A stretch of 32,000 nucleotides of DNA from Acaryochloris marina MBIC11017. Its GTDB lineage: Bacteria > Cyanobacteriota > Cyanobacteriia > Thermosynechococcales > Thermosynechococcaceae. The stretch spans positions 90,001-122,000 of the forward strand of contig NC_009927.1 in the NCBI RefSeq assembly GCF_000018105.1, given 5' to 3'. Position 1 is the stretch's first letter; each line of letters starts with the position of its first letter. Below, piece after piece: positions 3,291 to 30,303 of the stretch. A model generated the notes under the pieces. That model made no database searches and was not told the DNA's origin. It saw nothing but the letters and a program-made list of their open reading frames with translations. Made by a program: the position numbers and the translations under genes.

Positions 3291-3346
3291 CTTCTTATTA
3301 CGTCTTGAACGAGAACAGTGTGATTGCAGATCTCAAGAGTTATCAG

Positions 3347-3364
3347 AATGATTATCATTATCAT
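3347..3364. promoter_or_regulatory. Zur-box-like motif AATGATTATCATTATCAT upstream of zur
   Basis: Exact 18-mer shared with 4747..4764 and 29571..29588. The core AATGAT-T-ATCATT is a 6-1-6 palindrome. It lies 57-74 nt upstream of the zur ATG (3290). Confidence 0.7.
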
Positions 3365-4714: not shown

Positions 4715-4744
4715 GGATAGACTTGCTGCCAGCAGGATTTTAAT

Positions 4745-4764
4745 ATAATGATTATCATTATCAT
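4745..4764. promoter_or_regulatory. Zur-box-like motif upstream of the flavoprotein gene
   Basis: ATAATGAT-T-ATCATTAT is an 8-1-8 palindrome (4745..4761) and contains the shared 18-mer (4747..4764). It lies 31-50 nt upstream of the ATG at 4714. Confidence 0.7.
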
Positions 4765-6629: not shown

Positions 6630-7838
6630 ATGAGACATACAAACAAACTCCCCGTCACCGTACTTTCAGGTTTCCTTGGGGCCGGTAAAACCACCGTGCT
6701 GAGCCACATTCTGAACAACCGGGAAGGCAAGAAGGTCGCCGTAATTGTCAATGATATGAGTGAAATCAACATTGATTCGGCGATAGTACAAAGTGAAGTT
6801 TCTCTCAACCGCAGCGAGGAAAAGCTTGTTGAAATGAGTAATGGCTGCATTTGTTGCACCTTACGGGAAGATTTGCTTGAGGAAGTTAACAAGCTTGCAC
6901 GGGAGGGTCGCTTTGATTATTTAGTAATTGAATCCACTGGTATTTCTGAACCTTTACCTGTAGCTGAAACTTTTACCTTTACGGATGAAGATGGCGCTTC
7001 GCTTTCTGATGTTGCCGATCTAGACACAATGGTGACCGTGGTCGATGCAGTCAATTTTCTGGAGGACTATGAAAAGGCGCGATCCTTAAAGGATACGGGT
7101 GAATCTTTGGGTGAAGAAGATGAACGCAGTGTCGCCGATTTGCTGGTCGATCAAGTGGAGTTTGCCGACGTCATTCTCATAAGCAAAACCGACTTGGTGC
7201 TCCCTTCTGATATCGAGCGCTTAACAGCCATTCTTAAAACGCTGAATACGCACGCGAAAATAGTACCGATTGCTCAAGGCCAAGTTAATATTGATCATGT
7301 GCTTAGCACCGGATTATTCGATTTCGAGCGCGCACAACAAGCGGCTGGTTGGCTCAAGGAGATGCGAGGTGAGCATGTCCCTGAAACCGAAGAATACGGC
7401 ATAGGCAGTTTTAGCTACGTTGCGCGACGACCTTTCCATCCAGAAAAGTTTTACCAGTTTCTGTCCAGTAGAGACAAATACGGTAAGTTAATCCGTTCTA
7501 AAGGGTACTTCTGGCTAGCTTCGCGCCCTCAGTTTGCGGGTCACTGGAGTCAGGCTGGAGGCATAGCTCGCCACGGTGTCGCAGGGATGTTCTGGAAAGC
7601 CGTACCCAAGGAAAACTGGCCACAAGACGAAGAATATCTCGCCGCAATTAAAAAGCAATGGGTAGAGCCTTTTGGTGATATGCGTCAGGAACTAGTTTTT
7701 ATCGGCCAGGGTTTGGATAAAGAACGCATCACACAAGCGCTTGATGAATGTCTATTAAGCGAGGAAGAAATTGTGCGGGGCCACACTTATTGGAAATCAT
7801 TAAACGACCCATTTCCTGAGTGGGGTCACAGCGCATGA
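6630..7838 (+). CDS. COG0523 family GTPase (ZigA/YeiR-type putative zinc metallochaperone)
   Basis: 402 aa. P-loop GFLGAGKTT, metal-binding GCICCT motif, [10 protein letters not shown] switch and SKTDL. The long C-terminal CobW_C-like domain is typical of the roughly 400-aa ZigA class. Confidence 0.9.
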
Positions 7839-16310: not shown

Positions 16311-18191
16311 TTAAGCTCGGGGCATACTTCTTGCTACGCTGTCTAGGTCTCCCTCTAAAAATTTGGATCTACAGGTAAATCGCTGAATCTTTCCACTAGA
16401 AGTTTTGGGGATACTACCGGGCTTGAGCAGCCAAAGGGCATGGATGTGCAAATCATGCTCTTTGGCAACCGCCCGACGAATTTGAGTGAGTATATCTTTT
16501 TCGACGGTAGTAGGTTCTGAATCGGCAGTTAAGGATGTGGGCGAGACAAAATCATTGAGCTGAGGAGGCTGAGAGGATGGCTTCTTACCGTTTTTCCGAT
16601 AGCGATTGATATAGTTTCTTTCCAGTTCTGCCACCACTATTAGCCGCTCTTCCCCCGCTTCAGTAATCGAAAATGCAGCGGCACAATTGGGGCGAATACC
16701 GGGATAGCTTTGAACCACAGTCCACTCAATATCCTGAGGATAATGATTACGGCCATTGACAATAATCACGTCCTTGAGGCGGCCGGTGACATAAAGTTCA
16801 GAGCCGACCAAAAAGCCATAGTCCCCTGTTCTTAAAAAGGGGCCTGCGCCTGTATCTGCCAAATGGGCCTGAAAGGTTTCCTCAGATACATCTGATTGTC
16901 CCCAATACCCTTGAGCAATACTTTCCCCAGACACCCAAATCTCGCCGACTTCTTCTGACGAGCATTGCTGCAGAGTTTCAGGATTAGCGATCACGATTTC
17001 TTGGTCTTGAAGGGAAGTGCCGCAGCCCACTAGGGTGCGGGCATTGACATCATTGGCCTGGGCCGAGACCACATGATGCTGTTCTAAGGCAGTCCCTTGG
17101 ACCGTTTTGAGGGCGGGTTGGGCATCCGGTTGGCCCCCGGCCACGATTAGAGTGGCTTCGGCAAGACCATAACAAGGAAAAAAGGCTTCTGACCGAAATC
17201 CATAAGGAGCAAATTTAGTGGCAAAGTCTTCAAGGGTCTGGGCACTGATGGGTTCTGCTCCATTAAAGGCCACCCGCCAGGAACTCAGATCCAGTCCTTG
17301 GAGCTGTTCCGGCTTTATTTTTCGCAAGCATAAATCATAGGCGAAATTGGGTCCGCCGCTGGTGGTTCCTTGATAGCGGGAAATGGCTTGGAGCCAGCGA
17401 ATGGGGCTCTGGAAAAACATAAATGGGGACATCAGAACCATGGGAAATCCCCCGTATAAAGGCTGCAAAATCCCGCCAATTAGACCCATATCATGGTAGG
17501 GCGGTAGCCAAATCACCGCTAGGCTCTGGGAACTATGCTCAAAGCATTGATGAATCAAGGATAAATTCTTTAAAAGATTGTGATGAGTAATCATCACCCC
17601 TTTGGGCGTTGCGGTTGAACCAGAGGTGTATTGAAGAAAGGCTAAATCTTGCCCCTGAGGATGAGTCTCTTGCCAGGCTTGGCGGGGTTCCGTAACGCTG
17701 AGGCTATCTGTTGCTAGCCACTTAAGCGCTCTCAATTCTGGAGTATCAATCAGCCGTCGCTCTAATTTCGACAGAATTTGAGAGGTGGTAAGGGCAAAAA
17801 TGGCTTGGGAATCCGCGATGACGCTCTGCAAACGCATCAAGGAGCGATTCGGGCGGGGGGGATAGATGGGAACTGCCGTAACGCCTGCATAGAGGCAGCC
17901 AAAGAAGGCAGCCACATACTCTAACCCAGGCTGATAGACCAATAGGGCTCGATCGCCGGGGTGGCAGGCTAACTGTAGTGCTGCTGCGATCGCACGGGCC
18001 TTGATATCCAACTCTGCATAGGTGAAATGGAGGGCTTCTTCCTCTCCATCAACCAGAAAGGTAATCCCCCTCCGATCCGGCTGGTAAGCAGCTCGATAAC
18101 GGAGCAAATCCACCAAACTTTCCACCTTCGGTGGATCCGATTCTTCGATCTTAGTGTCCCAATTTGTTGTTTTAGCCACGTTGTACTCCAT
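16311..18191 (-). CDS. Fatty acyl-AMP ligase / AMP-dependent synthetase
   Basis: The LQYTSGSTATPKGVMITHHNL AMP-binding motif, YGLAEATL, GDYGF and SSGKIQR fit a FAAL-like N-terminus and length. I chose the start at MEYNVAKT (complement 18189..18191); the ORF-track start at 18278 is also possible. Confidence 0.85.
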   Translation of the reverse strand: MEYNVAKTTNWDTKIEESDPPKVESLVDLLRYRAAYQPDRRGITFLVDGEEEALHFTYAELDIKARAIAAALQLACHPGDRALLVYQPGLEYVAAFFGCLYAGVTAVPIYPPRPNRSLMRLQSVIADSQAIFALTTSQILSKLERRLIDTPELRALKWLATDSLSVTEPRQAWQETHPQGQDLAFLQYTSGSTATPKGVMITHHNLLKNLSLIHQCFEHSSQSLAVIWLPPYHDMGLIGGILQPLYGGFPMVLMSPFMFFQSPIRWLQAISRYQGTTSGGPNFAYDLCLRKIKPEQLQGLDLSSWRVAFNGAEPISAQTLEDFATKFAPYGFRSEAFFPCYGLAEATLIVAGGQPDAQPALKTVQGTALEQHHVVSAQANDVNARTLVGCGTSLQDQEIVIANPETLQQCSSEEVGEIWVSGESIAQGYWGQSDVSEETFQAHLADTGAGPFLRTGDYGFLVGSELYVTGRLKDVIIVNGRNHYPQDIEWTVVQSYPGIRPNCAAAFSITEAGEERLIVVAELERNYINRYRKNGKKPSSQPPQLNDFVSPTSLTADSEPTTVEKDILTQIRRAVAKEHDLHIHALWLLKPGSIPKTSSGKIQRFTCRSKFLEGDLDSVARSMPRA

Positions 18192-18582
18192 CCTGAGCAA
18201 AGAATTATAGATTAGTTCTCGATTTGAACAGCCCTTATAGGCCCAAAACAACCAAAGCTGCAACTTACTGCCGATCAATCAACTGATTTCGGGTTTTATT
18301 TCATGGTTGAAATGTTCTGAAACCCATACCCTGCAGAGTATTTCATCGACATCAATTAAAATGACTCCAGTCTTTTAGTTTGACGTTTATTAGGAGTGCA
18401 GATGTCCCAAACCCAATCTAATCAATGATTTCCAACCTACGTGCCCCTAGAACAGTTCGAAACATTTGTCTTGTCCCACCTACACATCGTTAGGGAAGGA
18501 GTCGTAAGGGTCATGGGAAAATCCTCTTCGATGGGCAATCAACAGCAACACATATGGCAAAAGGAATGCCATGTCAGGAGCA

Positions 18583-19629
18583 TTAAGCAGAAATCGCTTC
18601 AGTAATATGATGGGAGTCCAGTCCTTGGCCGATAAACACTAGTTGAGTCAGACGGGGTTCGCTAGTTTGCCATAGCCGATCATAAAATTGGTCAAAGCGT
18701 TGCCCCACTCCATGGAGCACCAACCGCATAGCTTTATTGGGAACGGCGACGAAGCCCTTGATCCGATAAATTTCTTGCTGCTGTACCAAGACTTGCAACC
18801 GTTCGATCAGTGTGTTCGGGTCAAAGGTCTGCTCCAACTCTACGCAGATGGAGTTGATGTTGTCATCGTGATCATGGTCTTCTTCCTGATCATGATGGCT
18901 GGGGCGGCTATCGAGATTATCTTCTACAGCTGCGTTGAAACCGAGCAGAATATCTGGGCTAATTTGACCGTGATGGCAGGGAACAACTTTGACACCTGAC
19001 GGAGTCTGTTGCTGCAGCCACTGTTGGATGCGGCTACATGTATCCTCCCCCTGTATCACATCGGTTTTGGCCAGTAGTACCATATCCGCACAGGCTAATT
19101 GATCCTCAAACAGTTCCTCTATTGGGGTTTCATGTTCTAAACTGTCATCTGCCTGTCGCTGGGTGTTCAGGGCATCCAGATTGCTGACGATACGCCCCTG
19201 AGCCAGCGCATCTCCGTCCACCACTGTCACCACCCCATCTACCGTAGCTCCCGTGCGGATCTCAGGCCTGCGAAACGCTTGCACCAAAGGCTTGGGCAGG
19301 GCTAACCCCGAGGTTTCAATCACAATGCAGTCAATCTCATCGCGTCGCTTCAATAGTTCCTGCATGGTGGGCAAAAACTCTTCCTGAACTGTGCAGCAGA
19401 GGCAACCATTGGCCAGTTCAACGATATTGGGGCCAGAGCCGTTAGGAGTCTCCTCGTCGTTGCACACCTGGCATGACCTCAGCAGTTCGCCATCAATGCC
19501 CACTTCGCCAAACTCGTTCACTAACACGGCAATGCGACGCCCCTGGTTGTTTTGCAGTAGATGCCGCACCAGAGTGGTTTTGCCTGAACCGAGAAAGCCA
19601 GTGACCACAGTAACGGGAATTTTGTGCAT
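18583..19629 (-). CDS. cobW: COG0523 GTPase, CobW-like, with a His/Asp-rich stretch
   Basis: I place the start at MHKIPVTVVTGFLGSGKTT (complement 19627..19629). GCLCCT motif, ETSGLALP, AKTD and SHHDQEEDHDHDD are present. It lies immediately downstream of a DUF1636-like gene, the usual CobW context. Confidence 0.8.
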   Translation of the reverse strand: MHKIPVTVVTGFLGSGKTTLVRHLLQNNQGRRIAVLVNEFGEVGIDGELLRSCQVCNDEETPNGSGPNIVELANGCLCCTVQEEFLPTMQELLKRRDEIDCIVIETSGLALPKPLVQAFRRPEIRTGATVDGVVTVVDGDALAQGRIVSNLDALNTQRQADDSLEHETPIEELFEDQLACADMVLLAKTDVIQGEDTCSRIQQWLQQQTPSGVKVVPCHHGQISPDILLGFNAAVEDNLDSRPSHHDQEEDHDHDDNINSICVELEQTFDPNTLIERLQVLVQQQEIYRIKGFVAVPNKAMRLVLHGVGQRFDQFYDRLWQTSEPRLTQLVFIGQGLDSHHITEAISA

Positions 19630-19687
19630 GGATGAGAATCCTTTGATGAAAAGACAAACTTTATTTAATTCGATAGAAGCTGAATCA

Positions 19688-20095
19688 TCAGCGGGTGGGG
19701 GCATCAGTAGGGAGCGGCGGCAGGATAAACGCAGTGGCCTCTCGAACCAAGTTCGGACGTTCCGAGTAGGGGACTTTACCATCGGGAGAAGTGGCGTATT
19801 GCTGGCAAAATACTGCAACCGCCTTAGCTCCCTCTGTCGGTGATATCTGACTGAGGATAAAGGTCAATTTACCGGGAGCGGCAAGGCTAACGTTGCAAGG
19901 GTGGCTGCACCCCGCCATACAGCGCAATGGTTCTAACCGAACCGTATCTTGTAGATTGCAGGCTTCGAGTGCCTGGTGGAGTTGGTTAATCAGGTATTGG
20001 CCTCCCGAAATACCGTCCCGACAGGCTTCATCCTTAGAGAATCGACATAGTGAGCAGACAAATAATGTGGTTTGGGTCATGGGCTGAGATTGCAT
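19688..20095 (-). CDS. DUF1636-like predicted metal-binding protein
   Basis: 135 aa. LFVCSLCRFS...RCMAGCSHPCNVSL is the Cys pattern I associate with DUF1636 proteins found next to cobW. Confidence 0.65.
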   Translation of the reverse strand: MQSQPMTQTTLFVCSLCRFSKDEACRDGISGGQYLINQLHQALEACNLQDTVRLEPLRCMAGCSHPCNVSLAAPGKLTFILSQISPTEGAKAVAVFCQQYATSPDGKVPYSERPNLVREATAFILPPLPTDAPTR

Positions 20096-21249: not shown

Positions 21250-21374
21250 ACTTAATTTCTGGTCCCTTATCATCACCAAAGCTATGTAGTGATGCTCCAA
21301 TGACAATGCAACCGTGACTTAATTAAAGCTAAATCATTCATCATCTATACCTCGCAGATGTTGTGAAAGTGAGT

Positions 21375-21492
21375 AATCACTCGGCGGGCGTTCTGACTCT
21401 GAGGACAAAGCCTCATCACAGCTGCGGGACAGCGCCGGATTTACACCGGACTTTCCCCGTTTCCTCTAACGACTGTTCCCCGTTAGAACCGA
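21375..21492 (-). promoter_or_regulatory. Cobalamin (B12) riboswitch aptamer
   Basis: The reverse strand reads GGUUCUAACGGGGAACAGUCGUUAGAGGAAACGGGGAAAGUCCGGUGUAAAUCCGGCGCUGUCCCGCAGCUGUGAUGAGG...CCUCAGAGUCAGAACGCCCGCCGAG. The GGUG.AAAUCC...GCUGUCCCGCA.CUGU core and the B12-box-like AGUCAGAA.GCCCGCC are recognisable. Confidence 0.8.
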
Positions 21493-21895
21493 ATTTATAA
21501 AATTGTTTCTGAATCCTACCACAAGAATCAAGTTCTAAGGTTGGATAATTATTGAGTCAAAAATACCATTTCTAAGTCTGCTTTAAAGGGTAGGTCATCC
21601 TCAAGATTTAGCCCTGTCAAAGTCTTTCAAGTTTGACAAACTGTCTTTTGACGCCCTTTCAAGATTTCATCAGAATGATCGCTTAAGCCTCTAGTAAAGA
21701 ATAAAAATCTGCTTTGAAAGTCCATCAATGCTCTTTTACCTTTCAAACATCTCTTTGTTGGATCAGCATGGGTCTGACTATGTTGATAGGGACTAATCCT
21801 TACCACGCTGAGAGTGGCAATACTCGCAACACATACTTAGGTAAGCCAGAAGTTACTCACATGCCTGCACCCTTACCCACTGCCTTTGTATAGCT

Positions 21896-22708: not shown

Positions 22709-23166
22709 ATGGATGCTATTCAACGGGTTATTGATCGCGCAGAGCGGCGCTGTAAAGAAAATAGCTCGCGTTTAACTAAAAAAAGAAAACTAGCGCTATC
22801 ACTGTTACTTAAATCGGGCAAAGCACTCTCTGCTTATGAATTAGTGGAGACTTATAAAACTGCATTGGGTGACACCATGCCTGCCATGTCTATGTATCGA
22901 ATTTTAGAGTTTTTAATGGCAGAGAACTTAGTGCATCGCCTTGATCTGATCAATAAGTATGTTGCTTGCGAACATATTAAGTGCGAGCACGCGCATGCTC
23001 AGACGCAATTTTTAATCTGCGGTCAGTGCCAAAAAGTTAAGGAAGTCACGATAAGCGCATCAATTATGGATGTGCTAAAGAAAAACACTAGCGATGCAGG
23101 CTTCCCCTTGCGAGCCCACAATTAGAAATGAACTGTATATGCGAGGATTGTATGTCAACAGGATAG
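22709..23166 (+). pseudogene. Second copy of the E. coli-type Zur-like gene, frameshifted before the C-terminal CxxC
   Basis: It shows 9 aa substitutions over the first ~131 aa relative to 8087..8572. Where copy 1 has TTTCATCTT this copy has TTCCCCTT, one base fewer, which gives GFPLRAHN*. The shifted frame still reads ASPQLEMNCICEDCMSTG*. Confidence 0.7.
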
Positions 23167-23229: not shown

Positions 23230-24720
23230 TTAGTGCCGATGCCAACGGGTAGCTCCATCTGGTTGATCAACCACTGTAATCCCCGCTGCCGATAGTTGAG
23301 CGCGAATATCATCTGCAGTTATAAAGTCTCGCTGTTTTCGGGCTGTTTGTCGCTGCTGAATTAGATCAGTTATTACAGCCTCATCTAATTTGCCAGTTGC
23401 TTCATCCGTATCACTGTTGACTTTAGCTTCTAAACCCAATACCTGGGCCAGATACAATAATGTTTGCCACTGCTGCCAGAGCAGCTCCGGACTGGACTGG
23501 GACTTGCCTTCATGTACCAGACGGTTCCCCTCTCTCTGCAGCGCTTTGGCAAGTTCAAACAGCACTGCCAGAGCCCCCGATGTGTTCAGATCATCATCCA
23601 TTGCGGATTGAAACCGTTTGGTCCATGGGTCTTCTGAACTGGGTTCCTGAGGTGAAGACTGGATGCTAGCAAATGGCGACGACAATGCTACTCGGTGACG
23701 GTTGCCAAAGAGAATTCCGGCTTTTAACGTCTGCCAACTATTGATCGAAGCCACGATCGCATCTTTTGTAAAATCAAGCGGTTTCCTATAGTGCCCCTGC
23801 AACACAAACAGTCGCACCGCCATTGGATCTACCGGCTCCGGATAGTCTGCCCAACCTCCATCTAGCAGGTCACGAATCGTGGTGAAATTGCCTAGGGATT
23901 TCGACATTTTTTCCCCATTCACCGTTACCATCCCATTGTGCAGCCAGTAGCGAGCGAGCGGCTGTCCGGTCAGCACTTCTGATTGAGCAATCTCGTTTTC
24001 ATGGTGAGGAAACACTAGATCACCACCACCTCCATGAATGTCAATGGTTTCGCCCAATCGCGCCCGGATCATGGCCGAGCATTCGATGTGCCAACCGGGT
24101 CTTCCTAGTCCCCAGGGCGATTCCCAGGCAGGTTCACCAGGTTTTGCAGATTTCCACAAGGCAAAATCAAACGGATCGCGCTTCTTCTGGTCTTGAGTAT
24201 CATCGGCAACTCGTCCTCCTGCACCTACCTTCAGTTGCTCAAGCTTACGACCAGAGAGCTTTCCATACTCCGAAAATTGCCGCACGCTATAGTAAACATC
24301 GCCATCGATCGCATAAGCGTAGCCTTGCTGTTCTAGTGCCTGGATCAATTGATGAATTGCAGGAATGTGCTCTGTCACACGGGGATAGTCATCAGCATCT
24401 AGAATATTGAGTCGGCGAATATCACGAAAATAGGCATTAATATAGCGATCGCTCACCTCCTGCATCGTTATGCCCTCTACTATGGCGCGATGGAGAATCT
24501 TGTCGTCAATATCTGTAAAATTCTGCACATAGCGCACTGTGTATCCACACCACTTTAAATAGCGCCGCAGCACATCCCAAGCCATGTACGAACGAGCATG
24601 CCCTAAATGACAATTGTCATATACCGTCACGCCACAGCAATACATCACCACTCGTTCTGGGTGAACGGAGATAAATGGCTCTTTTTGATTGGTGAGAGTG
24701 TTGTGAAGAGTAAGGTTCAT
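23230..24720 (-). CDS. cysS: Cysteine--tRNA ligase
   Basis: 496 aa. [20 protein letters not shown] (HIGH), KMSKSLGN (KMSKS), HIECSAM and FPHHENE, which correspond to the positions of the E. coli Zn ligands C28/C209/H234/E238. Confidence 0.92.
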
Positions 24721-24790
24721 GCAAAATACTTTTAACTAAAAACACTGATAGGGGCGCAATAGGGAATCTGGTCAGACCCAGTGCTATGAG

Positions 24791-24802
24791 AATGATTATC
24801 AT
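24791..24802. promoter_or_regulatory. Zur-box core AATGATTATCAT in the cysS promoter region
   Basis: The first 12 nt of the shared 18-mer. It lies 71-82 nt upstream of the cysS ATG, just downstream of a TAGTAT -10-like hexamer on the cysS strand (complement 24805..24810). Confidence 0.5.
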
Positions 24803-25124
24803 CCATACTAACGGACCTATCTTCATTTCTTTAGTCATCACAACTGTATAGAACCTATTTGAAATCTTTTATGAAGTAACCAACTCTCTGAAGCCTTGCT
24901 GGGAAGGTGCGGAAAAATTTGGCTATGGCCTAAATTTAAGGCTCGTTGAAATTCTCGTTAAAGTGGCTGCAATCGCAGAAATCGAAATCATACAGGAGGA
25001 ACATTTCAGGGGAGTGACATTAAGCCCTTAGATTACCTTGATCGCTCCTGACACTGATATCTGGTTTTGATCCAAGCCAAGAATTGCTATATTGAGAACA
25101 TATTGGAACAAAGCTTTTCTCATA

Positions 25125-25187
25125 GTGAAAACAGCACTCGTCCTTACTAGCACTACCACAACAACTACCCACATAGGAGGGTTGTAA
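25125..25187 (+). CDS. Putative Thr-rich leader peptide 1 (GTG start; MKTALVLTSTTTTTTHIGGL)
   Basis: Hand-checked codons are ACT AGC ACT ACC ACA ACA ACT ACC CAC ATA GGA GGG TTG TAA. Thr makes up 8 of 20 residues, six of them consecutive. The start codon is uncertain; an in-frame TTG lies at 25092. Confidence 0.55.
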   Translation: MKTALVLTSTTTTTTHIGGL

Positions 25188-25220
25188 GGCGCTGCGCTGA
25201 AATTGGTCTTACTACTTTAG

Positions 25221-25257
25221 TTGCCCTCCAGACGAACTCTGGGGGGCAATGTTTTTT
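25221..25257 (+). terminator. Intrinsic terminator 1
   Basis: TTGCCCTCCAG-acgaact-CTGGGGGGCAA forms an 11-bp stem with one G-U pair, followed by TGTTTTTT. Confidence 0.75.
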
Positions 25258-25286
25258 CACCACCTGTATTCAGAAGGTCAAAAGGA

Positions 25287-25364
25287 ATGCCCATTTTGCT
25301 GACAATGTCTCTTGCAATGAACACTGCTACCGCCACCACTACTATCACGCCTGGAGGGACGTGA
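25287..25364 (+). CDS. Putative Thr-rich leader peptide 2 (MPILLTMSLAMNTATATTTITPGGT)
   Basis: AAGGAA lies just before the ATG at 25287, and in-frame alternative ATGs are at 25305 and 25317. Codons are ...ACT GCT ACC GCC ACC ACT ACT ATC ACG CCT GGA GGG ACG TGA. Thr makes up 7 of the last 13 residues. Confidence 0.55.
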   Translation: MPILLTMSLAMNTATATTTITPGGT

Positions 25365-25392
25365 CGATTGATTGCACATGCAACTCATCTGT

Positions 25393-25421
25393 CCCTCCAA
25401 GCATAGTTTGGAGGGTTTTTT
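25393..25421 (+). terminator. Intrinsic terminator 2
   Basis: CCCTCCAA-gcatagt-TTGGAGGG forms an 8-bp stem followed by TTTTTT. It ends 36 nt before the thrS ATG. Confidence 0.7.
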
Positions 25422-25456
25422 ATTACCTCATTACTCAGACAACAGGAGAGACTAAA

Positions 25457-26680
25457 ATGGCGGACCACCGTGAACTTGCAAGGGATATGGACTTGTTTCA
25501 CTTTGAAGAGCATAGTCCAGGAATGGTGTTTTGGCACCCACAGGGACTGCGGCTTTTTCGCAGCATTGAAGACTTCATGCGGCAAGTTTATCAAGGGCAT
25601 GGATTTGAAGAAGTGCGATCGCCCATAGCACTTAATAGATCGCTATGGGAGCGCTCAAGGCATTGGGAAAAATTTCGTCAGGGAATGTTTGTTGTTGGCA
25701 GCGTAGAGGCAGATATAGACGATGAATCAGCCCTATCCGTCATCAGCCCTGACTATGCGTTGAAGCCCATGTCATGCCCTGCCCATATTGCTATTTATCA
25801 GTCCCGCAAGCGCAGCTATCGGGAAAATCCCATGCGATTGATGGAGTTTGGCATCTGTCATCGCAACGAACTGTCTGGCACATTATCGGGGTGTATGCGG
25901 CTGCGGCAATTTGTCCAGGATGATGCTCATATCTTCTGCCGAGCATCTGATGTGCAGCGTGAAATTAGCAATTTCCTCAATATGGTGCAGCAGGTTTATG
26001 TTGCTTTTGGCTATGACCAATTTTCCCTACAAATATCACTTAGACCAGAGCAACGGCTTGGCTCAGATCATCTCTGGGATCAGGCTGAGTCTGTGTTAGT
26101 TAAAGCGGTTCAATCTTTGGGGCATAGTTATAAATTAGCTCCAAATGAAGGGGCATTCTATGGCCCCAAGCTCGAAATTAGTTTGCAAGATCAGTTGGGG
26201 AGATCGTGGCAGTGTGGCACAATTCAAGTCGATTTCAATCTGCCTCAAGTGTTTGAGCTAGCTTTTGTAAATGAATTGGGAGAATTGGAGCGTCCCGTCA
26301 TGCTGCACCAGGCGATTTTGGGGTCGCTAGAGCGCTGGATTGGCATTTTGTTAGAGCATCACAGCGGTGCCCTCCCCATTTGGGCTGCTCCTACACAAGT
26401 CGCAGTCGCCTCTATTTCTAATAAAGCATCTGCCTGGGCAGAAACAATTTTCTTTCGACTCAGGCAACTGGGGGCTAGGGTAGAACTTCACAACCAAAAC
26501 CGCACAATCAGCAAGAAAATTCGTGGACTCTCTAAACGCAAAATTCCATTGATTGCCATTGTGGGTGAGCAGGAAGCCATGAGTCAAAGGTTAAATCTTC
26601 GGTGTTTAGGGGCTCTAAAACAACAAGAAATGAGCCTAGCTGAACTTGAGCAAAAGTTAGCTGATCTTTCTATGCCGTAG
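25457..26680 (+). CDS. thrS: Threonine--tRNA ligase paralogue lacking the N-terminal TGS/editing domains (T2-like)
   Basis: 407 aa starting MADHRELARDMDLFHFEEHSPGMVFWHPQG, which aligns with the start of the E. coli ThrRS catalytic core ([26 protein letters not shown]). AGGAG lies 7 nt upstream. Zn-ligand contexts MSCPAH, QDDAHIFC and HQAILGS are retained, and the anticodon-binding domain is present. Confidence 0.9.
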   Translation: MADHRELARDMDLFHFEEHSPGMVFWHPQGLRLFRSIEDFMRQVYQGHGFEEVRSPIALNRSLWERSRHWEKFRQGMFVVGSVEADIDDESALSVISPDYALKPMSCPAHIAIYQSRKRSYRENPMRLMEFGICHRNELSGTLSGCMRLRQFVQDDAHIFCRASDVQREISNFLNMVQQVYVAFGYDQFSLQISLRPEQRLGSDHLWDQAESVLVKAVQSLGHSYKLAPNEGAFYGPKLEISLQDQLGRSWQCGTIQVDFNLPQVFELAFVNELGELERPVMLHQAILGSLERWIGILLEHHSGALPIWAAPTQVAVASISNKASAWAETIFFRLRQLGARVELHNQNRTISKKIRGLSKRKIPLIAIVGEQEAMSQRLNLRCLGALKQQEMSLAELEQKLADLSMP

Positions 26681-29526: not shown

Positions 29527-29563
29527 TAGACATAAAGGTTTGAAGGGGTAGATAAAAGGTTGC

Positions 29564-29590
29564 CAATGATAATGATTATCATTATCATTG
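29564..29590. promoter_or_regulatory. 27-nt perfect palindrome, Zur-box-like (CAATGATAATGAT-T-ATCATTATCATTG)
   Basis: All 13 symmetric pairs were checked by hand. It contains the shared 18-mer (29571..29588) and TGATAATGATTATCA. It lies 38 nt from the longest start of the 396-aa ORF and 81 nt from the folE ATG. Confidence 0.75.
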
Positions 29591-29670
29591 TCTTTGACCT
29601 AGTTTGCTTTTGGATTGAAGCCGACTGGATCTCGAAGTGCCCCTTATTCCGTTCCGCGTTAGGAGTTTCT

Positions 29671-30303
29671 ATGACTGTGCCTTCCATCCCGACCTTTGTC
29701 CCTGCGCTTACCACTGAAGCTCAGCCCATCGTCTCGGAGGCCGAAATGCAGGCCGCCGTTCGTACGTTGTTGCTGGGCTTGGGTGAAGATCCCGATCGCG
29801 AAGGCCTCCGAGATACTCCTAAGCGAATGGTTAAAGCCTTAAAATTTCTGACTTCGGGTTATCAGCAATCCCTCGATGAATTGCTGAATGGGGCCATCTT
29901 CCCCGAAGACCTAGATGAAATGGTCTTGGTGCGTGATATTGATCTCTTTAGTTCCTGCGAACATCATATTTGGCCCATTATTGGCAAAGTCCATGTGGCC
30001 TATATCCCTAATGGCAAAGTGATTGGCCTGTCAAAAATCGCCCGCATCTGTGAGATGTATGCTCGGCGACTGCAGGTACAAGAACGGTTAACAGCTCAAA
30101 TTGCTGATGCCTTGCAGGGCCTCCTAAACCCCCAAGGGGTGGCTGTAGTTGTAGAAGCAAGCCATATGTGTATGGTGATGCGAGGGGTGCAAAAACCCGG
30201 ATCTTGGACTTCGACCAGTGCGATGCGAGGCGTGTTTTCCAGTGATTCTCGCACTCGCCAAGAATTTTTTAACCTGATCTCCCATTCACCAGCAAGTCGC
30301 TAG
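29671..30303 (+). CDS. folE: GTP cyclohydrolase I (FolE, type IA)
   Basis: I place the start at MTVPSIPTF with AGGAG 6 nt upstream; the ORF-track start at 29560 would translate the palindrome. [33 protein letters not shown] and [10 protein letters not shown] are canonical FolE motifs and include the Zn-ligand Cys/His. Confidence 0.9.

Follow-up and report, generated by a model that had tools for sequence, protein, structure and literature searches.

Two candidate threonine-codon attenuators arranged in series upstream of an editing-domain-less threonyl-tRNA synthetase gene of Acaryochloris marina

Leader-peptide attenuation is a textbook mechanism of transcription control that needs ribosomes close behind the RNA polymerase. 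In this work, we analyze a 32,000-nucleotide (nt) stretch of Acaryochloris marina MBIC11017 (contig NC_009927.1, positions 90,001 to 122,000 of the forward strand; 'the window' below), and within it a cassette carried on plasmid pREC1, in which two leaders rich in threonine codons, each followed by an intrinsic terminator, precede thrS, the gene of a threonyl-tRNA synthetase (ThrRS) devoid of editing domains. The sequence comparisons and RNA folding assembled here, all of them computational, indicate that the cassette very probably consists of two serial ribosome-mediated transcription attenuators sensing Thr-tRNA(Thr). Among known systems, Escherichia coli thrL (RF00506) and the trp, his and leu leaders share with it an open reading frame (ORF) of cognate codons, four RNA segments with alternative 1:2, 2:3 and 3:4 pairings, an intrinsic terminator and a decision that depends on the position of the ribosome. 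The first unit of the cassette reproduces this trp/thr-leader logic in silico. Unlike the thrL/trp-type leaders, the cassette has no RF00506 match, would control an aminoacyl-tRNA synthetase (aaRS) paralogue instead of a biosynthetic operon, holds two units in series and resides in a cyanobacterium; moreover, its putative antiterminator strand is an invariant Shine-Dalgarno-like GGAGGG that belongs to the ORF and lies 3 nt ahead of its stop codon.

Attenuation of an aaRS gene through codons for its own amino acid is known or predicted in E. coli pheM-pheST, in the Rhodobacterales cysS leader uORFC-8-2 (PMC8632094), and in thrL-thrS, leuL-leuS and alaL-alaS of Streptomyces lividans (PMC8079986). 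All of these are single units before a housekeeping enzyme, unlike the tandem cassette on a truncated ThrRS. S. lividans thrL contains just two Thr codons and, according to its authors, no clear terminator (PMC8079986), whereas the leaders of the present family have 5–13 Thr codons and canonical terminators. In Bacillus, the leader of the second ThrRS gene, thrZ, is built of two to three T-boxes placed side by side (PMC2494555; Putzer et al. 1992, as cited in PMC4787780). The likeness lies in a tightly silenced back-up ThrRS behind serial terminator/antiterminator modules that respond to uncharged tRNA(Thr). However, a T-box reads the tRNA directly and without a ribosome, whereas the proposed sensor of the cassette is the translating ribosome, and the two RNAs are not homologous, as no T-box match is found. 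In Anabaena sp. PCC 7120, a cyanobacterium, the duplicated ThrRS T2 (thrS2) is a stress-only enzyme repressed by Zur at its promoters (PMC4787780). The Acaryochloris thrS is presumed likewise to be a duplicated cyanobacterial ThrRS gene expressed only under stress, and its context is metal-related, but T2 retains the N1/N2 domains (with an insertion), whereas the cassette enzyme has neither and there is no Zur box at its own promoter. An auxiliary aaRS that is silenced by ribosome-mediated attenuation and induced when charging of the cognate tRNA falls is said to occur in Streptomyces coelicolor (trpRS1, in work attributed to Vecchione and Sello, 2010). That system reportedly relies on Trp codons and a single leader in an actinobacterium, and its enzyme is an indolmycin-resistant variant. 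To judge from Rfam 15 and the literature that could be searched, the RNA family itself, the tandem pair of leader-peptide attenuators and a well-supported leader-peptide attenuator in cyanobacteria are new, which agrees with the preliminary description of this DNA, whose author knew of no such case for a cyanobacterial aaRS gene or as a tandem pair.

On the plus strand, positions 25085–25456 hold first the promoter and then the two leaders, each with its own terminator behind it; thrS follows and completes the cassette. Its parts, with coordinates of the window, are as follows.

25065–25093, plus strand: promoter, recognized by comparison with relatives; weak -35 (TTTTGATC region, 25065–25073) and extended -10 TGCTATATT (25085–25093)
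25125–25187, plus strand: leader ORF 1, from GTG 25125 to TAA 25187, 20 codons, product VKTALVLTSTTTTTTHIGGL
25132–25147, plus strand: unit 1 segment 1, CAGCACTCGTCCTTAC, putative 5' strand of the anti-antiterminator, partner 25184–25199
25152–25169, plus strand: regulatory Thr run of unit 1, six consecutive Thr codons
25176–25199, plus strand: unit 1 segment 2, with GGAGGG (25176–25181), GTAAGGC (25184–25190; the stop codon TAA is 25185–25187) and GCTGCGCTG; partner is segment 1 or segment 3
25206–25229, plus strand: unit 1 segment 3, with GTCTTAC (25206–25212), which pairs with 25184–25190, and CCCTCC (25224–25229), which pairs with GGAGGG or with 25241–25246
25220–25257, plus strand: intrinsic terminator 1, from a terminator scan; 13-pair stem 25220–25250, loop CGAAC, T6 at 25252–25257
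25287–25364, plus strand: leader ORF 2, ATG 25287 with in-frame alternatives at 25305 and 25317, TGA 25364; product ends in MNTATATTTITPGGT
25323–25349, plus strand: Thr-rich stretch of unit 2
25345–25351, plus strand: TCACGCC, which with GGGACGTGA forms a small local hairpin of unit 2, an alternative fold
25349–25364, plus strand: 5' strand of the putative unit 2 antiterminator, GCCTGGAGGGACGTGA, stop codon included; partner 25388–25402
25369–25387, plus strand: inner hairpin of unit 2, TGATTGC ACAT GCAA C TCA, enclosed by the antiterminator
25388–25421, plus strand: unit 2 segment 3 and intrinsic terminator 2; antiterminator 3' strand 25388–25402, 10-pair stem 25393–25415, T6 at 25416–25421
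25444–26680, plus strand: thrS, with Shine-Dalgarno AGGAG at 25444–25448 and coding sequence 25457–26680 (407 residues)

Transcription is predicted to start near 25100. In unit 2, threonine accounts for seven of the thirteen codons at 25323–25361. The word GGAGGG occurs at 25176–25181 and again at 25353–25358, each time 3 nt before a stop codon, and CCCTCC lies at 25224–25229 in unit 1 and at 25393–25398 in unit 2. The preliminary description had named both leader ORFs, the six Thr codons of the first, the two terminators with their U-tracts, the thrS start and GGA GGG codons complementary to the CCCTCC arm of each terminator, and all of these are present; its 9-base-pair match in unit 2 (TGGAGGGAC/GTCCCTCCA) is widened by RNAfold to 25349–25364 with 25388–25402. 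In unit 1, the predicted antiterminator has two parts, the GGAGGG:CCCTCC core and an inner helix formed by GTAAGGC (25184–25190, including the stop codon) and GTCTTAC (25206–25212). Of the elements that define an attenuator, the following are found here: a short ORF with a start and a stop before the gene, a cluster of cognate codons, an intrinsic terminator and, in unit 1, an anti-antiterminator. A GTG-initiated ORF at 25361–26680, in frame with thrS, passes straight through terminator 2, and several database entries for orthologues, of 439–455 residues (P0013, P0021, P0036, P0059), seem to be extended upstream in this way, probably through mis-annotation that takes in the attenuator.

Taken by itself, the window makes a weak case, since the terminator scan finds two terminator-like sites against 0.9 expected. 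We therefore turned to related loci. A profile search with the ThrRS protein, using one genome per species, gave 55 cyanobacterial and 25 proteobacterial loci, and the counts below refer to the 53 cyanobacterial loci with enough upstream DNA, the window being extra. All 53 of them, and the window, carry at least one unit, and about 46 have the tandem pair. The remaining loci look like decay of one unit: unit 2 is degenerate in L016 and L018, L021 and L022 combine one leader with two terminators, and L028 and L037 have a single unit. The observation goes far beyond chance because 100 units in 53 loci keep the ATG, the Thr run, GGAGGG, the stop codon and the terminator in register.

The leaders bear the signatures of translated ORFs whose sole selected content is Thr codons. 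An ATG is found upstream of the Thr run and in its frame in 98 of 100 units, and in 96 the stop codon of that frame comes exactly 9 nt downstream of the G that opens GGAGGG; in the other two frames, an upstream ATG is present in 1 and 6 of 100 units, and the stops are scattered. At codon slots -30 to -12, counted from GGAGGG, the share of threonine is 65–90% (101 units), and it is encoded by all four synonymous codons (ACC 313, ACT 244, ACG 95, ACA 93). Column entropy over the three codon positions is 0.54, 0.37 and 1.15 bits, with the third position being the most variable. The number of Thr codons per leader ranges from 5 to 13 across the family, and the length of the run changes by multiples of three, even between the plasmid copies of pREC1 and pREC2, which are 96% identical: leader 2 of pREC2 reads MNTTTTTTTTTITPGGT where the window has MNTATATTTITPGGT, the run being expanded in frame. 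Beyond the Thr codons and the Gly-Gly pair, the peptide is poorly conserved and variable in length. The Gly-Gly pair is encoded as GGA GGG in 94 of 96 units, although any Gly codon would serve; the constraint therefore acts on the RNA word GGAGGG and not on Gly-Gly.

The promoter is shared as well. At the aligned position, the relatives have TTGACA-N16-TATATT or TGnT(T/A)AAAT, and an exact TTGACA, followed by a TGn-extended -10, is found 55–80 nt upstream of the leader-1 ATG in 48 of the 53 loci. The window has kept the -10 (TGCTATATT) and lost the -35. Of the pair proposed earlier (TTTTGA at 25065 and TATATT at 25088), the extended -10 is conserved and the -35 is poor.

At the RNA level, the terminators are supported by covariation, which we judged by the cells changed on both sides of a helix compared with 500 shuffles. 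In clade I, 94.6% of the cells of terminator 1 are paired and 12 are changed on both sides, a value equaled in none of the 500 shuffles; over all clades, terminator 2 has 33 such cells, again with 0 of 500 shuffles equal. The variation is limited to the outer and loop-proximal pairs, and the CCCTCC/GG(A/G)GGG core is constant. This invariant core in an otherwise covarying stem would fit a three-way constraint, in which CCCTCC has to pair with either the leader GGAGGG or the terminator 3' arm. The preliminary description had suggested aligning related upstream regions; Thr runs and terminators proved to be conserved, and the GGAGGG/CCCTCC covariation that it looked for is absent, the core being invariant.

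With the leader removed and the transcript ended short of the terminator 3' arm, RNAfold predicts the antiterminator in the window as well as in the representatives of all clades; the clade means of its own-duplex energies run from about -13 to -27 kcal/mol. Its core is constant and its flanks have no significant covariation, so that conservation and energetics, and not covariation, argue for this helix and suggest its antiterminator function. Compensatory changes are seen at two pairs of the unit 1 inner helix. In unit 2, the antiterminator is part of the minimum-free-energy (MFE) structure of 25280–25402 (-28.8 kcal/mol), and all clade representatives adopt the same fold; the position of the inner hairpin is occupied by a hairpin in every clade, with different sequences. 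The small hairpin of TCACGCC and GGGACGTGA is 93.7% paired with wobble-compatible changes but is not competitive at equilibrium.

Segments 1 and 2 of unit 1 have co-evolved. The helix of 25132–25147 with 25184–25199 is present in the MFE structure of 25115–25260, where it competes with the antiterminator, and long 1:2 helices of different sequence exist in other clades (CCTTAC/GTAAGG; CGTCT/AGACG; TATCTTTCAC/GTGAGGAGATA; TACCTCAC/GTGAGGCGA). In ten clades, the two segments are complementary with differing sequences. In a clade-level permutation of own versus cross-clade duplex energies, the summed duplex energy is -154.7 kcal/mol, compared with -130.5 ± 6.6 kcal/mol for the permutations (p ~4e-4).

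Whether these alternatives amount to a switch was assessed by moving a ribosome mask codon by codon along the leaders, with 29 nt (A-site codon -15 to +13) forced to be single-stranded. Equilibrium folding of the complete units under such masks is uninformative for unit 1, so we folded instead the nascent transcript up to the terminator loop, before the terminator 3' arm is made. In the absence of a ribosome, unit 1 has a probability of 0.81 for the 1:2 helix and 0.05 for the antiterminator. With the A site on the Thr codons at 25152–25161, the antiterminator rises to 0.80–0.99 and the 1:2 helix falls to 0; with the A site anywhere from 25164 to the stop codon, the antiterminator is at 0. The unit 2 antiterminator has a probability of 1.0 without a ribosome or with the A site up to 25338; the value drops to 0.60 at 25341 and is 0 once the A site has reached 25344, up to the stop codon. 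Among the orthologs, 97 of 99 units exceed 0.5 for the antiterminator with the A site on a Thr codon, and the two failures are technical. The logic put forward in the preliminary description, in which a ribosome stalled on Thr codons frees the antiterminator strand and a ribosome at the stop codon masks it, is borne out by these nascent-transcript folds, which switch as predicted with and without a masked leader, and the conserved leader frames, GGAGGG and terminator covariation agree with it.

In these models, unit 1 acts like a classical attenuator of four segments whose default is termination, and unit 2 like a simpler one of three segments that is read through by default if untranslated. 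Without a stalled ribosome on unit 1, segment 1 would pair with segment 2 and the terminator at 25220–25257 would form; a ribosome at the stop codon would cover GGAGGG, and the terminator would form as well. A ribosome awaiting Thr-tRNA(Thr) at 25152–25161 would cover segment 1 and leave GGAGGG...GTAAGGC free to pair with GTCTTAC...CCCTCC, which would sequester the terminator 5' arm and let the RNA polymerase read through. In unit 2, the antiterminator (25349–25364/25388–25402) would be the default state, lost only if a ribosome translates leader 2 through to its stop codon. As unit 2 would act as a second checkpoint, full-length thrS mRNA would therefore need stalling at Thr codons, or no translation, there too. 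The expected outcome of the series is a very low basal expression that rises steeply as tRNA(Thr) charging drops, for example upon failure of the housekeeping ThrRS.

The gene placed behind this predicted gate encodes a ThrRS reduced to its core. The product, which is 100% identical to an A. marina threonine--tRNA ligase, contains only PF00587 (the class II catalytic core) and PF03129 (the anticodon-binding domain) in Pfam, and the N1/N2 editing domains are absent. It matches positions 171–561 of the 565-position TIGR00418 profile and aligns to residues 242–628 of E. coli ThrRS (1qf6), equivalent to the deltaN construct 1evk. C107, H158 and H284 are invariant; we take them to be the counterparts of C334, H385 and H511 of E. 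coli ThrRS, and the active-site zinc ligands thus appear to be conserved.

A covariance model built from unit-2 sequences alone was used to scan 553 kb on both strands. It recovers every unit 2 at 65–102 bits and also picks up unit 1, at 27–41 bits, in almost all of the cyanobacterial loci (20–21 bits for the degenerate L021 and L054); unit 1 of the window (25152–25253) scores 31.5 bits with E = 1.4e-4. The same model detects single leaders before gammaproteobacterial orthologs (Xenorhabdus, Marinomonas, Shewanella, Gynuella and others) at 25–39 bits (16 bits for L068). We conclude that unit 1, unit 2 and the gammaproteobacterial leaders form one family. All matches with E ≤ 0.1 in the 553 kb are at leaders just upstream of thrS, those on the minus strand falling on the palindromic terminators; no leader match away from thrS reaches E ≤ 0.1 on either strand, and the sole other match has E = 0.44. 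The gammaproteobacterial leaders read ...TTTT(E)T.RLFGG, with GGGGGG or GGAGGG directly before the stop codon, followed by a terminator of the form CCCTCTGAGCG...CGCCAGAGGG-T7.

L056, L057, L059, L060, L063, L065, L067, L068, L077–L079: gammaproteobacterial single leader plus terminator, ~100–240 nt upstream of thrS

In these gammaproteobacterial loci, a conserved CGCTCAGAG box that is the reverse complement of CTCTGAGCG in the terminator lies 3' of the terminator and before the thrS Shine-Dalgarno, and the two may form a further alternative pairing that affects translation initiation. Nearly all alphaproteobacterial homologs have no leader, with a weak candidate in one Rhodospirillaceae locus (L074). 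A metagenome scan with the pattern CCNGGAGGGACGTGA, which is too short, returned 120 random matches, none with a Thr run. As curated identities for the family, the T-box riboswitch (RF00230) was rejected given the lack of an Rfam match and Thr tracts that are variable in length and frame-specific, and Thr_leader RF00506 or another curated leader family was rejected for lack of a match in the window, in 24700–25520 at E ≤ 10 or in seven related loci.

The cassette also appears to travel as a unit. A second copy, 96% identical, is located on A. marina plasmid pREC2 (L082, 5001–6665); like the window, it has a GTG start for leader 1 and no TTGACA -35 box, and its leader 2 contains nine consecutive Thr. 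Homology between the pREC1 and pREC2 copies begins at about 25027 of the window, just upstream of the promoter. Across genomes, the flanking genes differ (nitroreductase, aldehyde dehydrogenase, cyclases, M23 peptidase and others), and a search for biosynthetic gene clusters or metal genes beside the cyanobacterial and gammaproteobacterial copies found heterogeneous neighbors. Since the neighboring genes vary, the cassette is autonomous; since homology between the two plasmid copies also starts just upstream of the promoter, the inherited unit comprises promoter, leaders and thrS together. In addition, proteins P0003–P0022 (loci L001–L006), 92–97% identical to the Acaryochloris enzyme and with near-identical leaders upstream, are binned to metagenome-assembled genomes of Rivularia, Moorena, Cyanothece, Crocosphaera and Leptolyngbya. 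This points to either a recent horizontal transfer of the cassette (in Acaryochloris, it is carried on conjugative plasmids) or mis-binned contigs.

Other explanations of the same architecture have to be weighed against attenuation. The cassette might be an RNA sensor that works without translation and directly recognizes uncharged tRNA(Thr), threonine or ThrRS, namely a T-box-like or other riboswitch, or an operator bound by ThrRS as in E. coli thrS, with the Thr codons being specifier-like or mimics of the anticodon. This idea draws on the well-conserved RNA elements and on the B. subtilis thrZ T-box leaders, in which Thr specificity, tandem layout and terminator/antiterminator alternatives are also found (PMC2494555). 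We nevertheless consider it very improbable: no Rfam leader or T-box matches at gathering score in the window or in seven related loci (gammaproteobacterial ones included), and region 24700–25520 at E ≤ 10 yields just one chance match to an internal ribosome entry site. Nor does the sequence behave like a sensor of this kind, as the Thr tracts vary in length with a 3-nt periodicity and use four synonymous codons, unlike a single specifier codon, the ATG and the precisely placed stop are kept in the Thr frame only, and the inner hairpin loops vary (ACAT, GTAT, ATAC...), unlike the anticodon loop of tRNA(Thr). That the products themselves matter, as Thr-rich micro-proteins or precursor peptides, or as terminated transcripts of ~150 and 320 nt acting in trans as small RNAs with an incidental effect on thrS, seems just as improbable. 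The leader ORFs are indeed conserved, and trans-acting attenuator RNAs and leader peptides do exist, such as rnTrpL in Sinorhizobium (PMC6614838); however, the peptide beyond the Thr run and Gly-Gly drifts in sequence and length, what is fixed in the Gly-Gly 'motif' is its nucleotide sequence, every match with E ≤ 0.1 in the scanned 553 kb lies directly upstream of a thrS of this subfamily, and the cassette is not accompanied by genes for modification or export. A trans role of the leader products may exist in addition to attenuation.

Zur could also be the primary control, with the leaders and hairpins being secondary, for example remnants, or terminators that insulate thrS from the divergent cysS promoter. 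The surroundings lend this some weight. Zur/Fur-type palindromes (ATGAnAATGATTATCAT and overlapping repeats) are found at 3342–3364, 4742–4764, 24786–24802 and 29566–29588 (12 matches compared with 0.16 expected), and the region encodes a Zur-like Fur-family protein, a CobW/COG0523 protein, FolE, CysRS and M23 peptidases, so that this part of pREC1 looks like a zinc-limitation, metal-responsive island. The pREC2 copy lies near a gene for a metal-binding protein and upstream of a Fur-family gene with a Zur-like box (7722–7744), and the second ThrRS of Anabaena is Zur-regulated (PMC4787780). The evidence at thrS itself speaks against it. The box at 24786–24802 sits on the cysS side, at 67 nt from where cysS starts and ~280 nt upstream of the conserved promoter that belongs to the cassette, and no Zur box is present within 25027–25457. 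On pREC2, which is homologous only from ~25027 onwards, the ~950-nt intergenic stretch upstream of thrS has no box, and the only ones in the 11.7-kb locus are ~2.3 kb downstream of the thrS start. The adjacency of cysS and thrS is found in none of the 55 other cyanobacterial loci, whose neighbors are unrelated to metals; Anabaena T2, with its N-terminal domains retained, is a different paralogue; and the zinc ligands of the thrS product appear conserved. We therefore regard Zur as a most unlikely primary control, and direct control of thrS by Zur is not supported. The Zur-type box that the preliminary description placed near cysS is real, its suggested part in thrS control is unsupported, and the proposed combination of zinc control with tRNA(Thr) charging control is likewise not supported, given the missing boxes and unrelated neighbors. 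An indirect link is plausible, in which zinc loss would disable the housekeeping ThrRS, raise uncharged tRNA(Thr) and thereby relieve attenuation. The genes of the island are listed here.

18583–19818, minus strand: CobW/COG0523
22709–23125: Zur-like Fur-family gene
23230–24720, minus strand: cysS (CysRS), plasmid-borne
29560–30303: FolE

Serial attenuation by translating ribosomes remains the explanation that we favor, and several points weigh against it. Leader translation, the transcription start, the 3' ends, the inducing condition and the antiterminator function are all things that we infer. To our knowledge, tight coupling of transcription and translation is undemonstrated in cyanobacteria. 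According to Korolev et al. (2016), reliable data on attenuation do not exist for the phylum (PMC4833913). The description of thrS as a presumed accessory (back-up) ThrRS beside a housekeeping enzyme assumes that the two co-exist in the carriers. A sigma-70 consensus scan of the window finds no promoter, the -35 is degenerate there, and the promoter was recognized solely through its relatives; both leaders in the window are devoid of a clear Shine-Dalgarno, and leader 1 starts with GTG. The 6-base-pair core of the antiterminator never varies and is uninformative for covariation, its flanks are 81% paired in fixed columns, no better than shuffles, and its own-versus-cross-clade permutations are not significant (p = 0.06 and 0.26). 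For the 1:2 helix, counts in fixed columns do not reach significance among the closely related members of clade I, and the helix is not predicted to be dominant in about half of the unit-1 orthologs. Finally, terminator 1 prevails under every mask once folding is taken to full equilibrium, which means that the decision has to be a kinetic one, as in the trp system.

If serial attenuation holds, about 100 conserved attenuator units in cyanobacteria would provide strong indirect evidence for transcription-translation coupling in these organisms, and the cassette would offer a compact, testable model system in which to study it. It would also give a regulatory rationale for the widespread and uncharacterized editing-less ThrRS, a potentially error-prone enzyme that would stay off unless tRNA(Thr) charging collapses. 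Two serial attenuators with different default states are an unusual design, resembling the multiple T-boxes of Bacillus thrZ, and could find use in cyanobacterial synthetic biology as a tight switch that responds to an amino acid. That gammaproteobacteria have the same leader indicates that a regulatory RNA and its gene can move together between phyla. A wider and tentative scenario, which we think possible but would not bet on, combines these elements into an ancient, horizontally mobile 'emergency ThrRS' module common to cyanobacteria and gammaproteobacteria, whose leader was duplicated in cyanobacteria into a two-stage gate with two logics. In this scenario, the Shine-Dalgarno-like GGAGGG before the stop might additionally hold the terminating ribosome by pairing with the anti-Shine-Dalgarno, the truncated ThrRS might serve to spare zinc or to resist inhibitors, and induction might follow from the consequence of housekeeping ThrRS failure, uncharged tRNA(Thr), and not from its cause. 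If true, the scenario would give cyanobacteria their first solid example of classical attenuation that depends on coupling.

Two further features of the window concern the surroundings of the metal-responsive island. A cobalamin riboswitch (RF00174, 63.8 bits) lies at 21366–21508 on the minus strand, upstream of a minus-strand cluster that encodes a cobalamin-independent methionine synthase fragment, hypothetical proteins, DUF1636 and CobW. A fatty-acyl-AMP ligase gene (FAAL/FadD32-like, 655 residues; 16311–18278, minus strand), unrelated to the cassette, adjoins the island.

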